Origin: Candidatus Woesearchaeota archaeon
GTDB lineage: Archaea; Nanobdellota; Nanobdellia; Woesearchaeales; UBA9642
NCBI GenBank assembly: GCA_003599145.1
Contig: QZIT01000005.1
Coordinates: 512,330-576,329 of the forward strand
Direction of reading: 5' to 3'
DNA: 64,000 nucleotides
Positions 52,478 to 63,805 of the stretch are shown piece after piece. Both the position numbers and the translations under genes were made by a program. Position 1 is the first letter of the stretch. Each line of letters starts with the position of its first letter. The notes below the pieces were generated by a model, which did not search any database, was not told where the DNA came from, and saw only the letters and a list, made by a program, of their open reading frames with translations.

Positions 52478-52585
52478 ACAAACAGTAAACAACACTTCTT
52501 TTTATAGGTTTTGGAAATAGGGGCTGTGAAGATGCACAGGACAAGAACACAAAACTGTTTTAAAGGACATCTGCTTTCAAACATC

Positions 52586-53428
52586 ATGCTCTCAGTAACC
52601 AACCTTGCAACAGCGTTGTACTGCAAAAGAAAGCTCTTTATCGAAAAAGTTCTTCGTTTAAAAAAGATACCAAAGGAATCTCTAGCCAAAGGCAAAGTTA
52701 GACATGCAGCTTACGAGCTGGTAAACAAAGAGGACGAGAGTATTGTCAGAACTATCAGAAAAAAAACAGAGTTTCCAGAATTATTGCTATTTTATAAGAA
52801 GAAACACCTGCAATGCCTGCAAAATGCACTCCTTCAACATAAAGGAGAGCTGAAGGAAGTCAACCTTGCACTTCCAGACGTTTTTAAGCAAAGCTGGCCA
52901 TCCCTCTATCGGGAAACGAAAGAGCGAGCATTCCATGTATTTTCGTTCATGGAAAAGCATCAAGTTTATGGTGAGGAGTTATGGCAATTACTGACTCCAA
53001 AAATAGATTCTGAAGTAAAAATAGTCTCTGAAGAGCTCCTGTTAACAGGAATTATAGATCAAGTATGGCACTATGAAGATGAAACCATTCCTTATGAGCT
53101 TAAAACAGGTAGTGCACCATTAAAAGGCGTTTGGCCAAGCCACAGTATTCAAATAGGAAGCTATATTTTAATGCTCCAAAACATCCAGGAAAACGCCAAA
53201 AAAGGCTATGTAAAGTATCTTGACATCCAGGAATCCCGAGAAGTATTTTTAAATCCTTTCTTAGAGGATAAAATTCTTGCAACAAGGGACGCCGTTGTTA
53301 CGATGATAGAGACCCGTGAATTGCCAGATCGCACTTCCAACAAAAAAAAGTGCGATTCCTGCGAATTCAAGGCGCAGTGCTACGATGAAAAAGTTATGGA
53401 TGCTGAGATGAAAAAGCTGCAGAATTAA
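52586..53428 (+). CDS. Stand-alone Cas4-like Fe-S PD-(D/E)XK exonuclease
   Basis: N-terminal YCKRK, GIID, ELKTG, QIGSY and C-terminal KCDSCEFKAQC. Confidence 0.85.
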   Translation: MLSVTNLATALYCKRKLFIEKVLRLKKIPKESLAKGKVRHAAYELVNKEDESIVRTIRKKTEFPELLLFYKKKHLQCLQNALLQHKGELKEVNLALPDVFKQSWPSLYRETKERAFHVFSFMEKHQVYGEELWQLLTPKIDSEVKIVSEELLLTGIIDQVWHYEDETIPYELKTGSAPLKGVWPSHSIQIGSYILMLQNIQENAKKGYVKYLDIQESREVFLNPFLEDKILATRDAVVTMIETRELPDRTSNKKKCDSCEFKAQCYDEKVMDAEMKKLQN

Positions 53429-53499
53429 TTTCGAAAGCTTTTTATATAAGAAGGCTTTTAGAATTCATTATCTACTCATGAATAAGGAAAGGTGAAAGC

Positions 53500-53763
53500 A
53501 TGGCAGAAGACGAAAAAAAGTTTTCAAAACAACTGATGGGCAAGACTGTCGTTTCCAAAGCTGGTAAAAAATTCGGAGAAGTTGGAGACCTTATTTTTGA
53601 AACCAGAACAGGGGAATTAATTCACTTACTCTTGGTCAATCCAACAAGCTACACAGAAAAGCTTGAACTGGAAAAAACAAAGGAAGGAGACATCTTAATA
53701 CCGTTCAGCTCAGTCATTGCAATGGGAGACTTTCTCGTTGTGGCTGAAGAAGATATTATTTAA
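53500..53763 (+). CDS. PRC-barrel protein (CdpB-like)
   Basis: GKTVVS..G..FGEV.D..F...TGEL...IPFSSV.AMGDFLVV. Confidence 0.87.
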   Translation: MAEDEKKFSKQLMGKTVVSKAGKKFGEVGDLIFETRTGELIHLLLVNPTSYTEKLELEKTKEGDILIPFSSVIAMGDFLVVAEEDII

Positions 53764-54805: not shown

Positions 54806-55765
54806 TTAGCCTGCACTGACATCTTTAATAATGATGTCTTTCTCTATGTATTCTCCGTACAGGTAATCTAGCGTTACCAAGAATACAGGCTCATAGATCT
54901 TTCCTTCGTTTCCCATGGTTACCGTACAGGTAACTGTTCTTGGAGCGCCGTTGTATAAATTAACATAACCAGCAACTCCTCCTTCTGAAAGGGCAGGGCA
55001 GTTAACGGTTGCATCAGTATCTTCTGGCAAGCTCACCGTAACGTAAACAATGTTCTTATCGACATTCGTTACAGAATCGTCACAGAACCTCTGGCTGCCT
55101 TTCTTGTAGATTTGCCCTGTTCCGACGTGTGATATAACCAAAAGCAAAGATGCCTTATTTTGCCCCGCGGGATTTTGCGATAAGGAGGTTATTTGAACAG
55201 GGGCTCCTGAATTCTTAGGGCTTTTTACTTCATTGAGCTTGCAAATCTTATCTGCATCCTTTGAGGTTTCGATGACGTTTTCTTTAATGCATATTTTTGT
55301 CGACACCCTAGTCTGATAGTCGTAGCAGGCTTCAGCTCTTAATGTAAAGAAATCATTTCCAAAAATATCCTGCTGGTAATTGAAGTTTTCAAAGTTTATG
55401 CTGGTAATGTCTCCATCAATAATGGTTCCTTCGAAGTTTTTTCGCTTGCCCTTGACATCGACATCTATAGCCTTTGAGGTTTCAGGATTTCCAAAATACG
55501 CAGAATTCAGCCCTATAAGCGACACTTTTCCATAATCTCTTGAAGCAACAAAGTCATACTCTCCTTTGTTTTCAATAATGACACCTATGCCAAAAGGATA
55601 TTGACCTGCATCAAATATTTCTTCAGGCGGATTTCCTTCCTGAAAGGAAAGCGCTAATCCTGTATTGCCTCCTGCATACGGGTCAAAAGCACTTGTGACC
55701 TGTTTTTGACCACAGCTAACCACAAAAAAAGCAAGTAATAAGACTGCAAAGAGTATTTTTCTCAT
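54806..55765 (-). CDS. Surface lipoprotein, paralog 4 of a beta-sandwich family
   Basis: Lipobox-like VVSC; GL..F....PP, ACYDYQT..C, GAPVQIT, HVGTG and final L.Y.Y strand. Confidence 0.8.
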   Translation of the reverse strand: MRKILFAVLLLAFFVVSCGQKQVTSAFDPYAGGNTGLALSFQEGNPPEEIFDAGQYPFGIGVIIENKGEYDFVASRDYGKVSLIGLNSAYFGNPETSKAIDVDVKGKRKNFEGTIIDGDITSINFENFNYQQDIFGNDFFTLRAEACYDYQTRVSTKICIKENVIETSKDADKICKLNEVKSPKNSGAPVQITSLSQNPAGQNKASLLLVISHVGTGQIYKKGSQRFCDDSVTNVDKNIVYVTVSLPEDTDATVNCPALSEGGVAGYVNLYNGAPRTVTCTVTMGNEGKIYEPVFLVTLDYLYGEYIEKDIIIKDVSAG

Positions 55766-55829
55766 TTTGAAACCTCCTGTTTTTCCATACGCTTATTAAC
55801 GGGATGAACCCCTTTATATTATTTTCCTT

Positions 55830-57164
55830 TTATGTCACTCTTTTAATCGTGACTGATTTCTGAACAGTTTGAGAGTAGCCATAGGCCATCTCGATAATCA
55901 AATTGTCGGGATATGCTGTATTTGGAGCATTATCTGGGATGTCGTACTCGCAGGTAACCATGCCCTGTCCGTTAGTCAATCTTACCAATCTATTAGGATT
56001 GCACTTCATGCTATAAGGGTCTCCTGTTCCCAGGTTGATATAATTTATCCAAACGAGGTTCAAGTCTTTCTCTGTTACCCTGTCAGGATTCCAAGGGTTG
56101 CATTTTTGCAATGCAAATGGACTATAGACAGTACCTTTGCCTACATTTCTAATGTAAATCTTAAAAAGTATTTTTCTAGGCGTATTTTCCTGCTCTATTC
56201 TGGTTATGGCAACAGGAGCTCCCTGGCTTTTCCATGATTGCGCTCTTACTGTGCAAACTTTTCTGCCTCCATCATAAGGATACTTGTCTATGCAAACAGA
56301 GGGAGTTGCGTGGGTAACATATGCATAACATGCTGTTGCAGTGATGGGCTGTATGGTTTCGTCTAAACCTTGAGGCCATTGCATGACCGTCGCCTTGAAG
56401 TTCAAATAATCTTTTTCTCCACCAGGATAATAATGATTATCGCCTAAAAGCAAAAAGGGAATCCCATATCTCTTATCTGGAAACTGTATTCCTACACCCT
56501 GATAAAACTGACTTAATTGGGTCATGGCCATTCTACCGTAATAGGCATTTTCAACACTCACTGCCTGCAGGTCAAGCGCAGAGTCAAAATTGCAGTGTAT
56601 CTTATTGACGTTTTGATCAAGATTTTCACAGTTAAGATTGAGAGTTCCAAAAAGCTGGGTGTCTTCATCAAACCAATCTTTTCCTGTAATGCTATCAAGC
56701 AGCTCTCCAAGGTTTCCATCGACATGAAGATTTCCAAATTCACCAAAAACTCCTCCTCCAACACCATAGCCTTGTCCAAAAAAGCAGTCAAAGGCAATAT
56801 TTTCATTGCCTGAAACGCTACCTGCAGCAATATCGCAGGAATTTATACCGTAGAGATTCTGCTCTTGCGCAAACGGAGGAATAGATAGAATGCTTGGATT
56901 ATATCCTGAAATGTAAACAGAGCCCATAGCATAATTCGCTCCTTGATTGTCTAATTTAACATTGATATCAAACGTATTATCATTAACATTGCCATCTGAA
57001 TAGAAATAGACTCTTGAAGGGGGCGTATTATCTTCAAAGGTCATCCTAACTCCTTCTGTGCCTACATAATACTTTTCTGTTTTTGGATTATTGGGATTGC
57101 TTACGAAACTGCAAGAAGCCAAAAAAAGCGATAAAAGAATAAAGACTGGTAATAATTTTCTCAT
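55830..57164 (-). CDS. Surface lipoprotein, paralog 3, with large internal insertion
   Basis: Lipobox-like LASC; ACYAYVT..CID, QGAPVAITRIE, NVGKG and YGY. Confidence 0.8.
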   Translation of the reverse strand: MRKLLPVFILLSLFLASCSFVSNPNNPKTEKYYVGTEGVRMTFEDNTPPSRVYFYSDGNVNDNTFDINVKLDNQGANYAMGSVYISGYNPSILSIPPFAQEQNLYGINSCDIAAGSVSGNENIAFDCFFGQGYGVGGGVFGEFGNLHVDGNLGELLDSITGKDWFDEDTQLFGTLNLNCENLDQNVNKIHCNFDSALDLQAVSVENAYYGRMAMTQLSQFYQGVGIQFPDKRYGIPFLLLGDNHYYPGGEKDYLNFKATVMQWPQGLDETIQPITATACYAYVTHATPSVCIDKYPYDGGRKVCTVRAQSWKSQGAPVAITRIEQENTPRKILFKIYIRNVGKGTVYSPFALQKCNPWNPDRVTEKDLNLVWINYINLGTGDPYSMKCNPNRLVRLTNGQGMVTCEYDIPDNAPNTAYPDNLIIEMAYGYSQTVQKSVTIKRVT

Positions 57165-57233
57165 GCTTCAATTTTTAGCTTTTGTATATATAAATATTAC
57201 TGTTTGCAGTATAGTTTGCAATACGCAAAACTG

Positions 57234-58154
57234 TCAGCGAACAATCTGAACATCTTTGCTGGAAGTCTGAAAGTACAAGTAATCTGTTTGGATGGTCAAA
57301 ATATCTGGTTGGCTGATGAACGTTAGCTCCAAAGGATCACCTATCAATTTGCAGTTCACGGTGCCTTCATTATTCATAAAATTCACAGGATTGGGATTAC
57401 AATCTAATGGTCTGTTGAAGAGACTTGCATTAATAATCAATTTACCCCATAGCTGAGTTGGAGACTCTTTAAGCACACACTGTTGCTGTATAGATTGCTC
57501 TGTTTTCTGAATCATAGTTCCCCCACCTACATTTTTAAGCGTGATGGCAAAAGAAGGCGTCACTCTATTATCTGAAACAGTCATTCTTGGCTCTACTCTC
57601 GTTATGGCAACAGGAGCTCCCTGATTTGCAAAGGTAAGCAGTTTTGCGCTGCAACTTTTTTTTCTTGCATCAAGATTAAAAGGATCTTTGTCTATGCAGA
57701 CATCTGCTGTTAATTTTGTTGTATAAGGATAGCAAACATTCATCAGTATTTTAGAAGACGGACTTTCCCTTTGACCTTCTATGGTCCTAGCATGGAACAA
57801 GTAACTATACGTTTCTAAAGAACCTTCTTGATTAAAGTAATGCTTACCAGGTAGCTCAATTTCTGTTGGTTCTTCAGAACCATTCAAGGTGAAGTAATAG
57901 CTATCATAGATGAAATAGAGATAGCCCTCTGTTTTTTCATCTTTGGATATATTAAAAGCCCCTGCATTTTGAACTTTGACAATAACATTAAAATCTTCTT
58001 CTTGAAATATTTTTGCAGGAGGCGCATTTTTCATAAACTCTGTTTTTAATCCATAAGGCCCTTTGTAAGGATTAAAAGACGATGGCTGCTTGGTTGTTGA
58101 AGTGCAAGCAGTAAGCAGCAACAAGGCAACCATGGCGATGAATACATATTTCAT
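57234..58154 (-). CDS. Surface lipoprotein, paralog 2
   Basis: Lipobox-like LTAC; VCYPYTT..CID, QGAPVAITRVE, NVGGG and YLY; ATGA overlap with the upstream gene. Confidence 0.8.
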   Translation of the reverse strand: MKYVFIAMVALLLLTACTSTTKQPSSFNPYKGPYGLKTEFMKNAPPAKIFQEEDFNVIVKVQNAGAFNISKDEKTEGYLYFIYDSYYFTLNGSEEPTEIELPGKHYFNQEGSLETYSYLFHARTIEGQRESPSSKILMNVCYPYTTKLTADVCIDKDPFNLDARKKSCSAKLLTFANQGAPVAITRVEPRMTVSDNRVTPSFAITLKNVGGGTMIQKTEQSIQQQCVLKESPTQLWGKLIINASLFNRPLDCNPNPVNFMNNEGTVNCKLIGDPLELTFISQPDILTIQTDYLYFQTSSKDVQIVR

Positions 58155-60682
58155 CTTGGAGCACCTATCTGTACAGATTTTGTTTTCGAAAGTTCATAAT
58201 CATAAGACGCTATAACGATAAACGTATTTACAGATATTCCTCCATCCCCAAGTAAATCATCTGCATAGGCTGTTTTATTTTCAGGATTAAGAACATACTC
58301 AGAAACAGCACAGGAGTAATATTCGTTAAGGAAGGCATTTTTATCAAAAACTTCAACGCCTGAAGGATTATAACTAAAGCGATAGATGCTGTGAATAGGT
58401 TTAGAGCCTCCTGGCAAATAGTGCGAGGGTATTGGCCCTTTTTTCAACCCCTGACCGGTAACAGACTCCATAATCATGCCATTGCCTGTGTAAAGGGCAA
58501 CATGACCAACACCATCTCCTTGAGGATTGGTAAAAACAATATCGCCTGGTTTTGCATTTGCATTTATTTCTGTTAAAGAACAATCTGGACTGGAAGGAGT
58601 TATCTGTTTATCTCCGCATATAAGTTTTGCATTCATGCTTCTCGCCAATCTTAAATAACCTGAAGCAGACAGCCGTTCTGAGAATCCAGGAACGCCTGCA
58701 TGACTCATAACCCAATAGGTCCATCCAGAGCAATCAAAACCTTCTTCCGGGCTTTCCCCTCCATATTGATAACAAGTATCTTCTCCTGTAGGACCGTATT
58801 TTTCATAATAGTAATTTGCAATGCCCATAACACATTGCGAGGTTTTGCAAGGAACTATGGGTTCTTCCGGCGTAATGCAAAATGTTGGTGTCTTTTGAAT
58901 AATAAACGTATCTGATGTATTTTCCATTTTTAATCTGCATCTGACGGTTAAATACTCTGAGTTCACATTTGCAGGTATATCAACAAACGTGTAATTGGTG
59001 TACTTTCCATCTTCTGCAACGTGAACATTCTGAAGGTTTTTAGGATCTTTGGTATTGCAGGTTGTTAAATCAAGCTGCAAAGGTTTGGGAATTCTAAACG
59101 TCAACTGGTTAATTTTAACAACTTTTCCCAAAGGATCACTGTTTTGAATGGTTATGCCAAAAACGGGCAGGATAGGATTTTCTTTGCTCACTGCCATTGG
59201 CTGTTCAGGAGGATTTCTGATATCAACTAATCCTAATTTTACAGGTCCATTGGTATAGACTGCTTCGGGATATCTTGCTATTTGATATAAGCTTACAGGG
59301 TCTTTATTTTCAGAGCGCAAATTTCTCAATAAATCTCTATCCATAAACGTGTAGGTAACATAGCCCCATGTCTGAAAGTTAAAGGTTGACTTGAATGTAA
59401 ACTGATGGCTTTGTTTAGTAAAATCAATAGTTGTTGGACCTAAAGCAGGTCCGATGTTGCATTGCAAATAATAAGTTTCTAACTCAGAAATGCCGAATCC
59501 TGCAGGGTCAACTAACCCTTCATAATCATCCAGAAAACACTTATTCGTTACTTTTGCTTCATCAACAAATGTTCTTCCTGTTACTGTAATATACCCCCCT
59601 ATAGGGTCTCCGTATTCAAAATAAGTATAATAAGGCTCTATCTCTCCAAACGTAACTCCTAACTGTACACCTTTATTTTTCTCAACTTCTGCTGCGTAAT
59701 AGGGATCTGCTGCAACTCTTATTTGATAGGTTACGTTTCCTGGTATTCCTAAAGCCACATTCATCATTCTTTTTGCAGCTTCCTTGATGACACTCCACAC
59801 TTTCTGCAAAGGAGACATGACATTTCCATCAGGTCCTGCTGCTGTTATCTGCCCAAAGTCAATAAAGCCAACAACTAAAAAGGAAACAAGAATAACGACC
59901 CAAATTGCTTTGATCGTTCCAAAGAAATAATCGAAGTGTTTTGCAGTATAAACAGGCCATGCAGGAACCAATACTAAAAACAGATTGAACAAATCTCCGT
60001 AGCTTAATCCTCCAAATGCATCTCCTGTAGGAATAACGGTTCTCAGTAAAGGAATGAAAATGCTTGCTGCAGAAATTGCAAAATATCCGAAAATGTGCCA
60101 TGCTCCGCCAAAATTTCCAGGCTGCCTAAAAACAAAAAACCAAGCAAGGATTGCAAAAATCAGATAAACAATATATGCATGATCATACAAGGCACCTGTT
60201 CTTTGAAATCCATAGCCAAAAGCATCAATCAAATGCCAAATTAACGTTAACCAAAAAAACCATTTGTACGCATTGTTTGTCCCTTGATTTTTTAACCAGC
60301 TTGCTGTTCCTCCAATACCTTGAGCTGTTTTTTGCACTGCACCTTTGCCCATTTGATAACCAACAGCTCCAACTGTTGCTCCTACTGCTGCAGTTGCCAA
60401 GGTTCCTCTACCCATAGCTTTTGTTCCTTTCCAAAGTCCTTTTCCTGTTGCCTTCATTCCTTTTTTAGTGTAATTACCATATCTTGCAAATCGTTCACGC
60501 ATACTTTCCTTTAACTGTTCTTCCACTTGCTCTTCTGACGGTTGCTGAGTTTGTTGAATAGGCTGTTCTATCCTGCTTTGCTTAGCAGGTTCTTCGTCCA
60601 TCTGAGAACTCGCCCTTCTATCTTTAATTTTAATCCGCGAGGCGTCTCTTTCCTGCTCATTGTAAGGGCTAACGTTAACCAT
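58151..60682 (-). CDS. Polytopic membrane protein with the same surface module and an inserted NlpC/P60 hydrolase domain
   Basis: Cytoplasmic Gln/Glu-rich N-terminus, about 5 TM helices, NGPV and F.ITI.N motifs; YQYGG...GFDCSGW; PGDIVF; GHVALY.G.G.IME. Confidence 0.85.
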   Translation of the reverse strand: MVNVSPYNEQERDASRIKIKDRRASSQMDEEPAKQSRIEQPIQQTQQPSEEQVEEQLKESMRERFARYGNYTKKGMKATGKGLWKGTKAMGRGTLATAAVGATVGAVGYQMGKGAVQKTAQGIGGTASWLKNQGTNNAYKWFFWLTLIWHLIDAFGYGFQRTGALYDHAYIVYLIFAILAWFFVFRQPGNFGGAWHIFGYFAISAASIFIPLLRTVIPTGDAFGGLSYGDLFNLFLVLVPAWPVYTAKHFDYFFGTIKAIWVVILVSFLVVGFIDFGQITAAGPDGNVMSPLQKVWSVIKEAAKRMMNVALGIPGNVTYQIRVAADPYYAAEVEKNKGVQLGVTFGEIEPYYTYFEYGDPIGGYITVTGRTFVDEAKVTNKCFLDDYEGLVDPAGFGISELETYYLQCNIGPALGPTTIDFTKQSHQFTFKSTFNFQTWGYVTYTFMDRDLLRNLRSENKDPVSLYQIARYPEAVYTNGPVKLGLVDIRNPPEQPMAVSKENPILPVFGITIQNSDPLGKVVKINQLTFRIPKPLQLDLTTCNTKDPKNLQNVHVAEDGKYTNYTFVDIPANVNSEYLTVRCRLKMENTSDTFIIQKTPTFCITPEEPIVPCKTSQCVMGIANYYYEKYGPTGEDTCYQYGGESPEEGFDCSGWTYWVMSHAGVPGFSERLSASGYLRLARSMNAKLICGDKQITPSSPDCSLTEINANAKPGDIVFTNPQGDGVGHVALYTGNGMIMESVTGQGLKKGPIPSHYLPGGSKPIHSIYRFSYNPSGVEVFDKNAFLNEYYSCAVSEYVLNPENKTAYADDLLGDGGISVNTFIVIASYDYELSKTKSVQIGAPR

Positions 60683-60722
60683 TGCTTACTTTGAAGCTTG
60701 GTGGTATATAAATATTTAGAAA

Positions 60723-61919
60723 TTAGTCGTTCTCTTCAATGAAAACTTTTAAATCAACAATATCCAGCGTTGTTCTTGGCTCTAACTCGATGGCGTTGGT
60801 GCCGTGCCTTAGATAATTGTCAACGTTCTTCTCGTACTGTATTTTATCGGTGTCAAAGGTGAAGGAAATGCCGTTAAAGGTTATAGTTCCCTGCTTGTTA
60901 TCCCTGTCATTGACAAACCGCAGGCGTATGGTTGCATTATACTTGCTTTCCAAAACATCATCATCAGGGTCATCTTCATCAATAGTCTGAAAAAACTCAT
61001 CATCGACTTCAAAATAGTAAATAGGATATAACTGCTCCTTCATGCTCGTCCTCACTCTCAAATTATCAACCAAGTAAGAACCCCTGTCTGTCTTGAATTG
61101 CAAAATGTTGTCTCCTTGATAAATATCGTCAGGATTAAGCAAAACATCATTTTTTACGCCGCAATCTGCGATGGCCGAGTACACAATCTTATGGTTGAGC
61201 CATATCAGCAAGGTTCCTACTGCTTTGCTATCGCAGCGAGGGAAAAAAGTGAGGCTTCCTCTTTCGAGGTTTTGTTTTTCCACATCAGAAACAAAAAAGT
61301 GTTGTTCGCTTGCACTGGTCGTTACATCTTTAAAGTTCGCCGTTACCTTAATATTTTCAAAAGAATATTCGTTAATTCTCCAAAATGCCCATCCTGGACT
61401 GGAAACTCTAAACTCTAACGTATTTTTTCCCTTAATAAGGTCTGAAGGCAAAGGTATCGGTTCAGGGCTTCCTTTTTCCACTTCTCCATTAAAAATCTCG
61501 TTTCCATTCAAAAACAAGATAAGTCTTCCATCTGCAGCCTCGAGATTAAAGGACAATAAAAAGTCATTTAAGTTTTCCCCGGAGTCAAAAGACATGGTTG
61601 CGAAGGATTTTTCAAAAACACCATTTCTTGAATAGAGAGACTTCACTTCCTTCAGCACTTCTCCAGACTCTGTTGAGTACATCCTGAAGGATGGCAATTC
61701 ATGGCTTCGTTCGTCAAATTTCAAATAGTCAATTCTTCCAGGATGCTCCAGTAAAAGAGTCTTATTCAAGTTTGCATCACTGTTTCCATCGTCGTCAGTG
61801 CTGTTTTCACCTAACAAATCAGTCCTCACATCAGGAGGGAGGAACAGAATGTAAAGAATAATAGCGAGTGTTATTAAAGCAACCATAATTGCTGCATTCG
61901 AACCAGACTGTGCTTTCAT
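60723..61919 (-). CDS. Acidic beta-rich surface protein with class III (prepilin-type) signal peptide
   Basis: MKA/Q followed by a hydrophobic helix; about three repeated units of the form L.I..N..(I/F)...L..G.N.(L/I). Confidence 0.75.
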   Translation of the reverse strand: MKAQSGSNAAIMVALITLAIILYILFLPPDVRTDLLGENSTDDDGNSDANLNKTLLLEHPGRIDYLKFDERSHELPSFRMYSTESGEVLKEVKSLYSRNGVFEKSFATMSFDSGENLNDFLLSFNLEAADGRLILFLNGNEIFNGEVEKGSPEPIPLPSDLIKGKNTLEFRVSSPGWAFWRINEYSFENIKVTANFKDVTTSASEQHFFVSDVEKQNLERGSLTFFPRCDSKAVGTLLIWLNHKIVYSAIADCGVKNDVLLNPDDIYQGDNILQFKTDRGSYLVDNLRVRTSMKEQLYPIYYFEVDDEFFQTIDEDDPDDDVLESKYNATIRLRFVNDRDNKQGTITFNGISFTFDTDKIQYEKNVDNYLRHGTNAIELEPRTTLDIVDLKVFIEEND

Positions 61920-61967
61920 ATCGTTACATTAATAAGCTTTATATATATAAATTTTGTTGTTACTGTT

Positions 61968-62984
61968 ATGAGGATTCTTTCAAAGGACTTAAAAAAAGGA
62001 TATATCAAGCTTCAGGCTCAAACCAATGAAGATTTATGGTATTTAAGCCAGATCATTGAACAAGGAGACTTAGTTAAAGGAGAGGCTGAAAGAAAAATCA
62101 AGTTAGGGGGAAGCGAGGAAAAAACAACCGTTGTTAAAAAGAAGGTATTTGTGGAGATTCAAGCTGAAAAGATAGAGTACGATGTTGTTTTGAGGGTTTT
62201 AGGCACTATTGTAGAATGTCCTGATGATTTGCCAAAAGGAAGCCATCAAAATATAACCGTAGAACCCCATTCAGTCATTGCCATAACCAAAGAATGGCTG
62301 TCCATTCACTTAGAAAAATTAAAGCAGGCGCAGGAGCAAAAGATAAACATGCTCTTGGTTCTTTTTGACAGAGAGCATGCGTTGTTTGTTGTCTTGGATA
62401 ATACAGGAACAAAGATGCTTGCAGAGGTTTCAGGAAACGTGAACAAAAAAAACTATGAAAATTCTGGAAATGATTTTTTCAAAGAACTCGCAAAAGAAAT
62501 CGAGGCATATCAGAAAAGATTTGCAACGATTATTGCAGCAAGCCCTTCTTTTTGGAATGATTATTTGCTTAAAGAGCTGAAAAACAAGGAGGGCATCATT
62601 TTTGCCAGTTGTTCAGAAGTAAGCGAAAGCGCAGTGCGGGAAGTGCTCAAAAGACCTGAATTGAAAAATGCACTCGAGCAAAGCAGAATTGCAAGCGATG
62701 AAACGCTTATGCAACGGCTTCTTGGAGAGGTTGCAAAAAACAACGCATTTTATGGAGTCAAAGAAGCAGAAGAAAAAATCTCTTCAGGTAACGTTACTGT
62801 GCTGATGGTTAGCGAGCATTTCTTGAAAGAAGCTAGAGAAAAAAAAAACTACAAAGATATTGAACAGCTCATGAAAACTGCAGAAAAAATGCATGCAGAG
62901 CTTCACATTTTAGAAAGCAAACAGCTTGATGGCTTGGGAGGCATTGCAGGAATATTACGATGGAAAGACTACAAGAGCTCATAG
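61968..62984 (+). CDS. pelA: Pelota (ribosome rescue factor)
   Basis: EDLWYL..II..GD.V...ERK, LRVLGTI, GSH and QLDGLGGIAGILRW. Confidence 0.93.
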   Translation: MRILSKDLKKGYIKLQAQTNEDLWYLSQIIEQGDLVKGEAERKIKLGGSEEKTTVVKKKVFVEIQAEKIEYDVVLRVLGTIVECPDDLPKGSHQNITVEPHSVIAITKEWLSIHLEKLKQAQEQKINMLLVLFDREHALFVVLDNTGTKMLAEVSGNVNKKNYENSGNDFFKELAKEIEAYQKRFATIIAASPSFWNDYLLKELKNKEGIIFASCSEVSESAVREVLKRPELKNALEQSRIASDETLMQRLLGEVAKNNAFYGVKEAEEKISSGNVTVLMVSEHFLKEAREKKNYKDIEQLMKTAEKMHAELHILESKQLDGLGGIAGILRWKDYKSS

Positions 62985-63805
62985 CGCTCATAAAGCAAAA
63001 AAGAGAATTGAAAAACCTCGATGATGATGTTGTTAGAGAAAAGATCATGCTCATCTTGAAAAAAAACAACAACACGAAAATAGAGTCTCTTGTTAAGAAG
63101 AAAGACATAAAAAAAATAATCAAGGAAACCAGGGCAGAATTAAGAAAAGTGTATGGCGTTTTTTTGCAGGACAAGTATGCGTCAAAAGATAAACTGCTAG
63201 AAGAGCTTGTTGCACTGTTGAAGGCAGAAAAAAGCCAGGAAAGAAAAAAAGAGATAGCCAAAACCTATTGCGATAAAATACTCCTGCTCCATCAATCAAC
63301 CAAAGAAAGGCTTCCTCACTATGAAGAGGTTTATAGCAGCATTTTCAAAATAACCAAAAAACCAAAAAGCATTTTAGATCTTGCCTGCGGTCTCAATCCT
63401 GCAAGCTATTTTTATTTGCACAGCACTCCGCATTATTTTGCGTCAGACCTAAACCAAGATGACAGCGATTTTCTGAATAGATTTTTTCAGGCTCTAAAAG
63501 TAAACGGCCATGCAGAAAAAAAAGATTTGTTGAAAGAGCAAACATATCAAAAAGCAGACGTCTGTTTTTTATTCAAGGCGCTTGATTCTTTAGAAAGAGT
63601 AAAAAGAAATGTCAGCAAAGAACTTTTGCAGAACATCCCCTCCAGCCACATCGTTGTTAGTTTTCCTAAAGCATCATTAAGCAGCAAAAAAACAATACGG
63701 TTGGAAAAAAGAAACTGGTTTTTTAGGTTGTTGAAAGAGCTTGCATGGGAATATCAAACTTTTGAAGTGCAAAATGAGCTTTTCTTCGTAGTGAAAAAGA
63801 AATAA
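62960..63805 (+). CDS. 16S rRNA m7G1405 methyltransferase-like protein (ArmA/RmtB/FmrO family)
   Basis: LHQSTKERLP, ILDLACGLNP, D....FK.L..LE, VVSFP..SL and C-terminal NEL.FV. Confidence 0.82.
   Translation: MERLQELIALIKQKRELKNLDDDVVREKIMLILKKNNNTKIESLVKKKDIKKIIKETRAELRKVYGVFLQDKYASKDKLLEELVALLKAEKSQERKKEIAKTYCDKILLLHQSTKERLPHYEEVYSSIFKITKKPKSILDLACGLNPASYFYLHSTPHYFASDLNQDDSDFLNRFFQALKVNGHAEKKDLLKEQTYQKADVCFLFKALDSLERVKRNVSKELLQNIPSSHIVVSFPKASLSSKKTIRLEKRNWFFRLLKELAWEYQTFEVQNELFFVVKKK

Follow-up and report, generated by a model that had tools for sequence, protein, structure and literature searches.

That some Woesearchaeota live on bacteria has been suggested from hydrolase genes scattered among them, namely those of the murein-like lytic transglycosylase proteins of Woesearchaeota and Pacearchaeota grouped as fam00969 (Castelle et al. 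2021, PMC8204110) and the GH23 genes of the same lineage (Vigneron et al. 2022, PMC9723730). The supplement row for fam00969 gives a GH23 domain, a median length of 1947 aa and one membrane helix (PMC8204110). Strock et al. 2025 (PMC12352652) described archaeal modular peptidoglycan hydrolases of bacterial type, which are said there to be prominent and diverse in Nanoarchaeota, and followed up the zoocin A-like M23 enzymes of Halobacteriales; the main text of that paper does not contain the term NlpC, and its passages on these hydrolases name no scaffold.

The locus described here lies in a window of 64,000 nucleotides from a member of the Woesearchaeales and consists of five genes, which encode a protein with a pilin-type leader, a membrane anchor and three lipoproteins. 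The class to which this order belongs is a large group of tiny host-dependent archaea. No published description of the cluster was found in the literature. Some of its anchors resemble the fam00969 and GH23 proteins (PMC8204110, PMC9723730) in lineage, in having extracellular wall-hydrolase domains and in the bacterial hosts or prey inferred from them. Unlike fam00969, the anchors are 370-1160 aa long, multi-pass and encoded within a conserved five-gene cluster, a distinction drawn from the description of fam00969 rather than from its sequence. They differ also from the hydrolases in the main text of Strock et al. (PMC12352652) in that the hydrolases ride on a conserved membrane-anchored subunit. 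The cluster offers a concrete handle, since it comprises three unnamed protein families, arranged in fixed order and found in almost all genomes of the order, and since one of these families bears bacterial-wall hydrolases repeatedly, and it is open to expression, complex modeling, peptidoglycan assay and antibody imaging.

Organization and conservation of the cluster

As a sequence-only reading of the window had proposed, the five genes are co-oriented, all being minus-strand open reading frames: gene 1 (398 aa, 60723..61919), the anchor gene 2 (843 aa, 58151..60682), and the lipoprotein genes 3 (306 aa, slot 1, 57234..58154), 4 (444 aa, slot 2, 55830..57164, with about 130 aa inserted internally) and 5 (319 aa, slot 3, 54806..55765). 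The ATGA coupling of gene 2 to gene 3 noted in that reading is the overlap at 58151-58154.

The module common to the lipoproteins was found in 153 of the 154 genomes of the order and, by use of a broader profile, in 96/151 genomes of the class. In the synteny check that the same reading had called for, the leader protein, the anchor and two to three lipoproteins proved to be ordered alike in 102 of the 137 loci read. The full set (leader protein, anchor and at least two lipoproteins) was present in 79/108 loci of the order and 23/29 loci in other orders, and also in most strongly diverged families. Judged from this gene content and order, the cluster is a lineage-wide core cluster and not a local curiosity. 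Some families gave no module match (f30, 0/17), and a complete 0.5-Mb genome (G010) gave only a single weak, unclustered homolog.

The three lipoprotein slots form three stable ortholog groups, the best hits falling within their own slot in 217/222 cases, and across 74 genomes neither the number of copies nor the slot assignment varies. In other orders, the last lipoprotein finds its best match in slot 3 (gene 5; 24/24). The anchor and lipoprotein 1 genes overlap in 44 of 99 loci and lie no more than 5 nt apart in 66. In roughly one-fifth of the loci of the order the genes are not all together; five genomes with split clusters were searched, and in all four where the anchor was found one lipoprotein still adjoined it. 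Fixed paralog slots and coupling of the anchor to the first lipoprotein are expected of subunits of one assembly.

Predicted structure of the lipoprotein module

The lipobox-like leaders VVSC, LASC and LTAC are all present, and the ordered motif set listed in the sequence-only reading is invariant in the three lipoproteins and kept in 293 homologs, in which Cys17 (98%), N63 (99%), C153 (100%), P181 (98%) and Y292 (97%) are the conserved residues. A lipobox-type leader (hydrophobic and ending in the conserved Cys) was located in 335/351 lipoproteins. The genome encodes the lipidation machinery (Lgt, 239 bits; signal peptidase II, 108 bits), and no Lgt was found in several other families that retain the cluster.

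The AlphaFold2 model of gene 3 (pLDDT 95.5, pTM 0.86) is all-beta except for the leader and one short helix. This model predicts that the module consists of two interlocked Ig-like sandwiches and that its C-terminal strand completes the N-terminal domain. Single-Ig matches cover residues 33-306. The module contains a seven-stranded Ig-like sandwich of the CARDB/NEW3 type, and it differs from the CARDB, NEW3 and DUF11 Ig-like surface domains (PF07705, PF10633; PDB 3idu) in having a second sandwich inserted before the last strand and in its conserved Cys pairs. No full-length structural match was found in the PDB, and no solved or viral structure matched beyond about one domain of the module (TM by query at most 0.26). 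In many module subunits the chain runs on beyond the last strand to form a large tail.

The fold of the module is not that of a solute-binding protein, and the module is distinct from the recognizable S-layer protein of the genome, S-layer and solute-binding families being the two identities against which the sequence-only reading had staked its proposal. A solute-binding protein would have a two-lobed alpha/beta fold and ABC transporter neighbors; the model is all-beta and no transporter is found among the conserved cluster genes. None of the five proteins matched the S-layer profiles PF05123 and PF05124, the latter of which matches a separate gene of the genome (G000:C1:77361-79544) that encodes a recognizable S-layer protein.

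The anchor and its NlpC/P60 insert

The anchor has a charged N-terminal tail, three to six membrane segments, a long helix, a diverged two-Ig module and an inserted NlpC/P60 domain. About five membrane helices had been expected; hydropathy places the membrane segments at residues 141-274 (59861..60262, minus strand) and gives three of them at a strict threshold and five to six at a loose one. The diverged copy of the module suspected in this protein was recovered by hhalign comparison of anchor cores with lipoproteins (E 1.6e-5, probability 79%; four control pairs gave E 0.08-0.6), and a second pair of alignments gave E 3e-4 across 246 columns. The first part of the anchor core (residues 288-591, 58910..59821, minus strand), composed of the helix and the Ig-like module, matches family profile positions 16-314 with 194 bits, and the model has pLDDT mostly 80-97 across residues 336-585. 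The last strand of the module (residues 805-839, 58166..58270, minus strand) matches profile positions 310-344 (E 7e-8) and follows the insert.

The cell-wall hydrolase domain attributed to the anchor is indeed an NlpC/P60 domain, and its placement had to be corrected: it lies inside the module, before the last strand. The insert spans residues 592-804 (58271..58909, minus strand), of which residues 637-752 match PF00877 with 52.1 bits against a cut-off of 23. The YxxGG, DCSG and HVALY motifs of NlpC/P60 cysteine peptidases (RipA/p60-type) are present and the catalytic residues Cys651, His727 and Glu739 are intact; unlike the RipA/p60-type enzymes, the domain interrupts an Ig-like module, and does so in a membrane protein of an archaeon. 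The PDB structures related to it belong to cell-wall hydrolases. The closest relative found is encoded within a different gene of this genome (a domain with 48% identity over 198 columns). Some NlpC/P60 enzymes act on substrates other than peptidoglycan stem peptides. The anchor domain is predicted to cleave the peptidoglycan of bacteria. A search of the archaeal genome, which is 97% complete, revealed no Mur ligase.

Gene 1

The class III signal peptide assigned to gene 1 is present as an MKAQ leader, KAQS being joined to a hydrophobic helix, the one membrane helix of the protein. Among 100 gene 1 orthologs, 61 have the leader motif by a strict pattern (a FlaFind-type regular expression) and 81 by a loose one. 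As 17 proteins of the genome bear class III-type leaders, the leader alone is not distinctive. The description of gene 1 as prepilin-like holds for the leader and probably not for the body. Like type IV pilins and archaellins, the protein pairs a K-[GA]-Q leader with a hydrophobic helix; unlike them, it has a body predicted to be carbohydrate-binding-like beta-sandwich repeats. No Pfam, NCBIfam or PDB sequence match was obtained, and its neighbors in the Atlas of predicted structures are BcsB/CBM-type, the matches being weak and partial (TM 0.23-0.36). The common module was not detected in gene 1 (E 0.08-0.2), which is tied to the other four genes by gene order alone. Of a type IV pilus system, no assembly ATPase or platform gene is found among the conserved cluster genes, and the five T2SSE-family matches of the genome all lie outside the cluster.

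Hydrolases carried by other anchors

Hydrolase domains were found on anchors in 13 of 87 loci of the order (SLT 7, GH73 2, NlpC/P60 2, M23 1, M15 1), and all enzyme families above the Pfam cut-off on anchors are peptidoglycan hydrolases. Roughly four-fifths of the anchors in the order have no recognizable hydrolase, and none of the 36 anchors scanned in other orders carries one. About 15 anchors bear Ig/FN3-like or Cys-rich tails instead. One slot 1 lipoprotein bears SLT. The cargo is scattered on a quick tree of the anchors (14 changes for 18 of 77 rows), and well-supported branches force at least five of these changes. Taken from these domain matches, the hydrolase is optional cargo and not part of the core. 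The earlier proposal that the structure presents a hydrolase is thus not a conserved function, because the cargo occurs in a minority of one order and is unseen in the 36 anchors elsewhere.

SLT exceeds the cut-off in 92/151 genomes of the order, mostly on other proteins, which means that hydrolases may land on any surface protein and that the cargo does not prove the job of the scaffold. In some families neither SLT nor Lgt was found, and the cluster persists. The wall hydrolases on anchors give a hint, at the level of domain content, that these archaea may dock on bacteria.

Possible functions of the cluster

The explanation we favor, at about even confidence, is that the cluster encodes one low-copy membrane-anchored surface scaffold, made of four paralogous two-Ig subunits and a predicted glycan-binding protein and likely placed at cell contact sites, with anchor cargo predicted to cut peptidoglycan. 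The lipoproteins would be exported and then lipidated. The anchor and first lipoprotein would be produced 1:1 and assemble first, lipoproteins 2 and 3, each expressed from a promoter of its own, would complete the hetero-oligomer, and the gene 1 product would bind surface glycan. Where a lineage comes into contact with bacteria, a wall hydrolase would have been copied from other surface proteins of the cell onto the anchor, thereby loosening peptidoglycan at the contact. The scaffold would predate its cargo and function without it.

The alternative we take most seriously, although we consider it unlikely, is a housekeeping envelope complex unrelated to hosts (e.g., a minor S-layer support, an S-layer portal or a division-site scaffold), hydrolase fusions being opportunistic use of any outward-facing C-terminus. 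Such a complex would account for a cluster that is near-universal, single-copy, vertically inherited and located among housekeeping genes, for the resemblance of the N-terminal domain of the module to CARDB/NEW3, a common archaeal surface fold, and for the many anchors without cargo in genomes where SLT is common elsewhere. It does not readily explain why the enzymes found on this one subunit are all hydrolases, and of five unrelated families, and the recognizable S-layer protein is the product of a separate gene. Even so, it would be a class-wide cell-surface system of unusual interlocked Ig architecture with no description found in print.

Rather doubtful, in our estimate, is a reading in which the cluster is the host-docking organelle of Nanoarchaeia, an ancient four-paralog stalk that Woesearchaeales re-armed many times with peptidoglycan hydrolases on moving to bacterial hosts. 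If true, it would be the first molecular apparatus through which archaea feed on bacteria, and the cargo family would read out host wall chemistry.

Type V pili polymerize by exchange of the last strand, and the lipoproteins could likewise form a short fiber with the anchor as its base and the cargo displayed. The subunits are made as lipoprotein precursors and their order is fixed, two long strands (133-154 and 282-305) cross both domains of the model, and the last strand completes the first domain. We consider such a fiber improbable: the AlphaFold2 monomer is self-complemented at pLDDT 95, tails follow the last strand in many subunits, and the codon bias is unlike that of an abundant filament protein (genes 1-5 rank 271-1145 of 1205 on a crude index, versus 73 for the S-layer gene). 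Still less probable are separate adhesin-like surface proteins that share origin and locus and form no complex, since, although TATA-like boxes of their own, split loci and the predicted folding of each subunit alone are in their favor, neither copy number nor slot identity varies over the 74 genomes, unlike in expanding adhesin arrays, and the anchor and lipoprotein 1 remain translationally coupled.

To return to the single scaffold that we favor, its five genes are probably not a single transcript, because TATA-like boxes precede genes 1, 2, 4 and 5. The box upstream of gene 1, TTTATATATATAAA (61938..61951, no strand assigned), is a perfect palindrome at the midpoint of the gap that separates gene 1 from the divergent pelota gene, and by its sequence and position is likely a two-way promoter common to both. 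In the locus set, 58 of 60 pelota/gene 1 gaps contain a TATA-like motif, on both strands in 35, as a raw count without a shuffled control.

The five genes and their products

The cluster consists of five minus-strand genes (window positions 54806–61919) in an assembly of 1.31 Mb in 6 contigs that is 97% complete. In reading order, these encode a 398-residue protein (gene 1), the 843-residue membrane anchor (gene 2) and three paralogous lipoproteins of 306, 444 and 319 residues (slots 1, 2 and 3). The open reading frames, leaders, shared motif set, ATGA overlap and NlpC/P60 domain described in the sequence-only reading were each present in the window sequence. Except for the anchor NlpC/P60 domain, the five proteins had no Pfam or NCBIfam match above cut-off. 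In the Atlas, genes 1 and 3 had unnamed archaeal clusters as neighbours, most commonly from Woesearchaeota, and a profile of the three lipoproteins matched 2498 representatives of a 50%-identity library (E values up to 0.001). No description of the cluster was found in the literature searched, which lay outside subscription journals and preprint supplements. In the available part of their table, Castelle et al. 2021 (PMC8204110) list numerous Woesearchaeota families that lack annotation, and the cluster families may stand unnamed among these; none of the 18 of 51 family rows seen for module 98 could be linked to the cluster genes by sequence.

Distribution and synteny

A 94-sequence profile matched 191 of the 201 genomes of a phylum sample (153/154 of Woesearchaeales and 38/47 of other orders). 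In an even class sample a three-sequence profile matched 55 of 151 genomes and a broader profile matched 96, both giving no match in the 17 genomes of one family (f30). We compared 137 loci, the window plus 136 relatives, 40 of which came from the 55 three-sequence-profile genomes and 96 from the best rows of the 94-sequence search. Because relatives came partly from best-listed rows, this set is biased to strong matches. Synteny in relatives had been set as a check on the cluster, and gene order was kept: gene 1, the anchor and at least two lipoproteins occur together in 79/108 loci of the order and 23/29 of other orders, the remainder including about 20 split clusters and loci truncated by the end of a contig. 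Order was also mostly kept in 19 further loci of diverged families, which have two to four lipoproteins. The complete 0.5-Mb genome G010 has one weak homologue, outside any cluster. We conclude that this is a real, class-wide and apparently undescribed gene system of the cell surface; its parts and conservation are solid, and its assembly and role we infer.

The divergent pelota gene is present in 86 of the 137 loci. A palindromic TATA-like box lies midway between its start and that of gene 1, and as a likely shared promoter this box would explain the association. The end of pelota is overlapped by a gene for an FmrO-family rRNA methyltransferase (62960–63805, plus strand; PF07091, 121 bits), a family that includes aminoglycoside-resistance methylases. 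On the other side, a Cas4/PD-(D/E)XK nuclease and a PRC-barrel protein (52511–53763, plus strand) are encoded ahead of the RFC small subunit gene, and in many of the order's loci this PRC-barrel/RFC pair comes after the cluster.

Hydrolase domains carried by the anchor

In the window anchor the NlpC/P60 domain interrupts the predicted two-Ig-like module between profile positions 314 and 310–344, and retains Cys651, His727 and Glu739. In relatives the cargo is C-terminal. A cell-wall hydrolase presented by the apparatus had been proposed: the window anchor carries such a domain, but hydrolases scored above the Pfam cut-off in only 13 of the 87 order loci that have an anchor and in none of 36 anchors from other orders. 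The domains are SLT (L033, L072, L073, L076, L082, L126 and L140), GH73 (L038 and L071), NlpC/P60 (window and L087), M23 (L161) and M15 (L164). Five additional cases are weak: L081 lies slightly below cut-off, L088 and L039 were detected by a home-made SLT profile, and L114 and L141 by eye only. No other enzyme family scored above cut-off on anchors, about 15 of which end in Ig/FN3-like or Cys-rich tails. By eye, the L134 and L136 anchors have a C-terminal helical domain that is similar to the lysozyme-like tails on L114 and L141 but lacks the catalytic Glu motif and is followed by a Cys-rich tail. Among long lipoproteins and gene-1 orthologues SLT was found on 1 of 59 scanned and 0 of 8 in a further set.

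A quick tree was built from 77 anchor cores, leaving out rows that were short or unmatched, and on it the 18 hydrolase-bearing rows require 14 changes, gains and losses pooled, at least five being forced by starred branches; shuffled labels gave a mean of 16.3 changes, with 43 of 500 shuffles as low as observed. Sister rows carry unlike cargo, for example M23 next to a lysozyme-like tail. The hydrolase is a swappable cargo of the anchor. It shows that the outer part of the anchor can reach wall substrate in cargo-bearing lineages and does not establish wall cutting as the ancestral job of the scaffold; the link to the bacterial wall is limited to a minority of one order.

SLT domains above the Pfam cut-off occur in 92/151 genomes of the order and 29/151 of the class. 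The order matches number up to six per genome, in open frames of 100–1800 residues, and are far more frequent than the five Woesearchaeota genomes with GH23 genes named in the available part of Vigneron et al. 2022 (PMC9723730). Among the 150 order matches listed, at least six lie on anchors and at least one on a lipoprotein, cluster positions being known for part of the sample. Hydrolases thus sit on many surface proteins of these archaea, and the anchor is one display site of several. In the parts available, Castelle et al. (PMC8204110) record giant GH23 proteins and propose bacteria as hosts, and Strock et al. 2025 (PMC12352652) describe archaeal hydrolases as prominent in Nanoarchaeota.

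The closest relative found for the anchor NlpC/P60 domain is in the same genome, on a 984-residue protein (48% identity over 198 columns), a likeness that would fit copying within the genome in either direction. This protein has a class III leader, an NlpC/P60 domain and a weak match to GH73, and closes a run of at least about 15 co-oriented genes (G000:C4:24403-48448; L199 and L201). Many of these genes have class III-type leaders; three are small, pilin-like and nearly identical, and three encode proteins of >1000 residues. Judged from its genes, the run resembles a pilus locus whose tip protein would be a wall hydrolase, and it has the NlpC/P60 domain in common with the anchor. Elsewhere, a 312-residue membrane-tethered protein (G000:C1:74834-75772; L200) matches SLT weakly (23 bits against a cut-off of 21.3).

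Cell context and possible roles

The genome encodes a bacterial-type Lgt (G000:C2:40534-41304; 239 bits) and signal peptidase II (G000:C2:332735-333106; 108 bits), so that the lipoboxes could plausibly be lipidated in the bacterial manner. Lgt scored above cut-off in 39/151 class genomes, including 19/19 of the order, and was not found in several class-sample families that retain the cluster. In their available parts PMC6098224 and PMC12462473 state that archaeal Lgt or Lsp was never identified; by contrast, the Castelle table (PMC8204110), as far as available, gives both in 83% of Woesearchaeota.

As the most likely reading we give even chances to a low-copy hetero-oligomeric cell-contact scaffold; membrane helices and lipid anchors would hold it in place, and some Woesearchaeales would use it to display a wall hydrolase. 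A search of the genome for a Mur ligase found none, so peptidoglycan, if it is the substrate, would be foreign. An envelope complex that is independent of hosts and has opportunistic cargo seems somewhat unlikely. Co-sorting studies that saw no cell-cell associations, as noted in the available part of PMC11606122, tell against assuming a host.

A separate 727-residue S-layer family protein (G000:C1:77361-79544; L198; PF05124, 43.7 bits) is likely the main coat protein, and archaellin and S-layer expression is described as high in the same part of PMC11606122. By a crude ribosomal-like codon index of 1205 genes the S-layer gene ranks 73 and the five cluster genes 271–1145, which points to a low-copy structure rather than to a coat or major filament. 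A strand-exchange fibre is improbable.

Fixed composition of the cluster

In 217 of 222 cases from the 74 three-lipoprotein loci, the best hit in a different genome belonged to the matching slot, and slot labels required 3–5 changes per slot on the tree vs about 65 for shuffles. In other orders the last lipoprotein matched slot 3 in 24/24 cases and the first could not be assigned to a slot. With gene starts picked by heuristic, the anchor and lipoprotein 1 overlap in 44/99 loci and lie within 5 nt in 66/99, the gaps ahead of lipoproteins 2 and 3 are about 47 nt, and a TATA-like motif precedes lipoproteins 2, 3 and 1 in 66/106, 40/77 and 13/101 cases, respectively. For split clusters, the anchor was found in 4 of 5 genomes searched, with one lipoprotein directly behind it in 4/4. 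Fixed slots and anchor-lipoprotein 1 coupling form the pattern that would be expected, albeit indirectly, for non-redundant subunits, and independent adhesins, some with TATA-like motifs of their own, are the least probable reading.

In some families the gene-1 orthologues are about 170 residues longer, at 560–600 residues; they occur in L031, L041, L126, L134, L136, L144, L147, L150, L162, L163 and L165, and the extra part in L031 and L041, the two examined full-length, is an acidic Cys-rich repeat insertion and makes a second variable slot of the cluster. In the window, a short inverted repeat (57200–57235; TTTTGCGTATTGCAAA) directly follows the gene 3 stop, ahead of the gene 4 TATA-like box.
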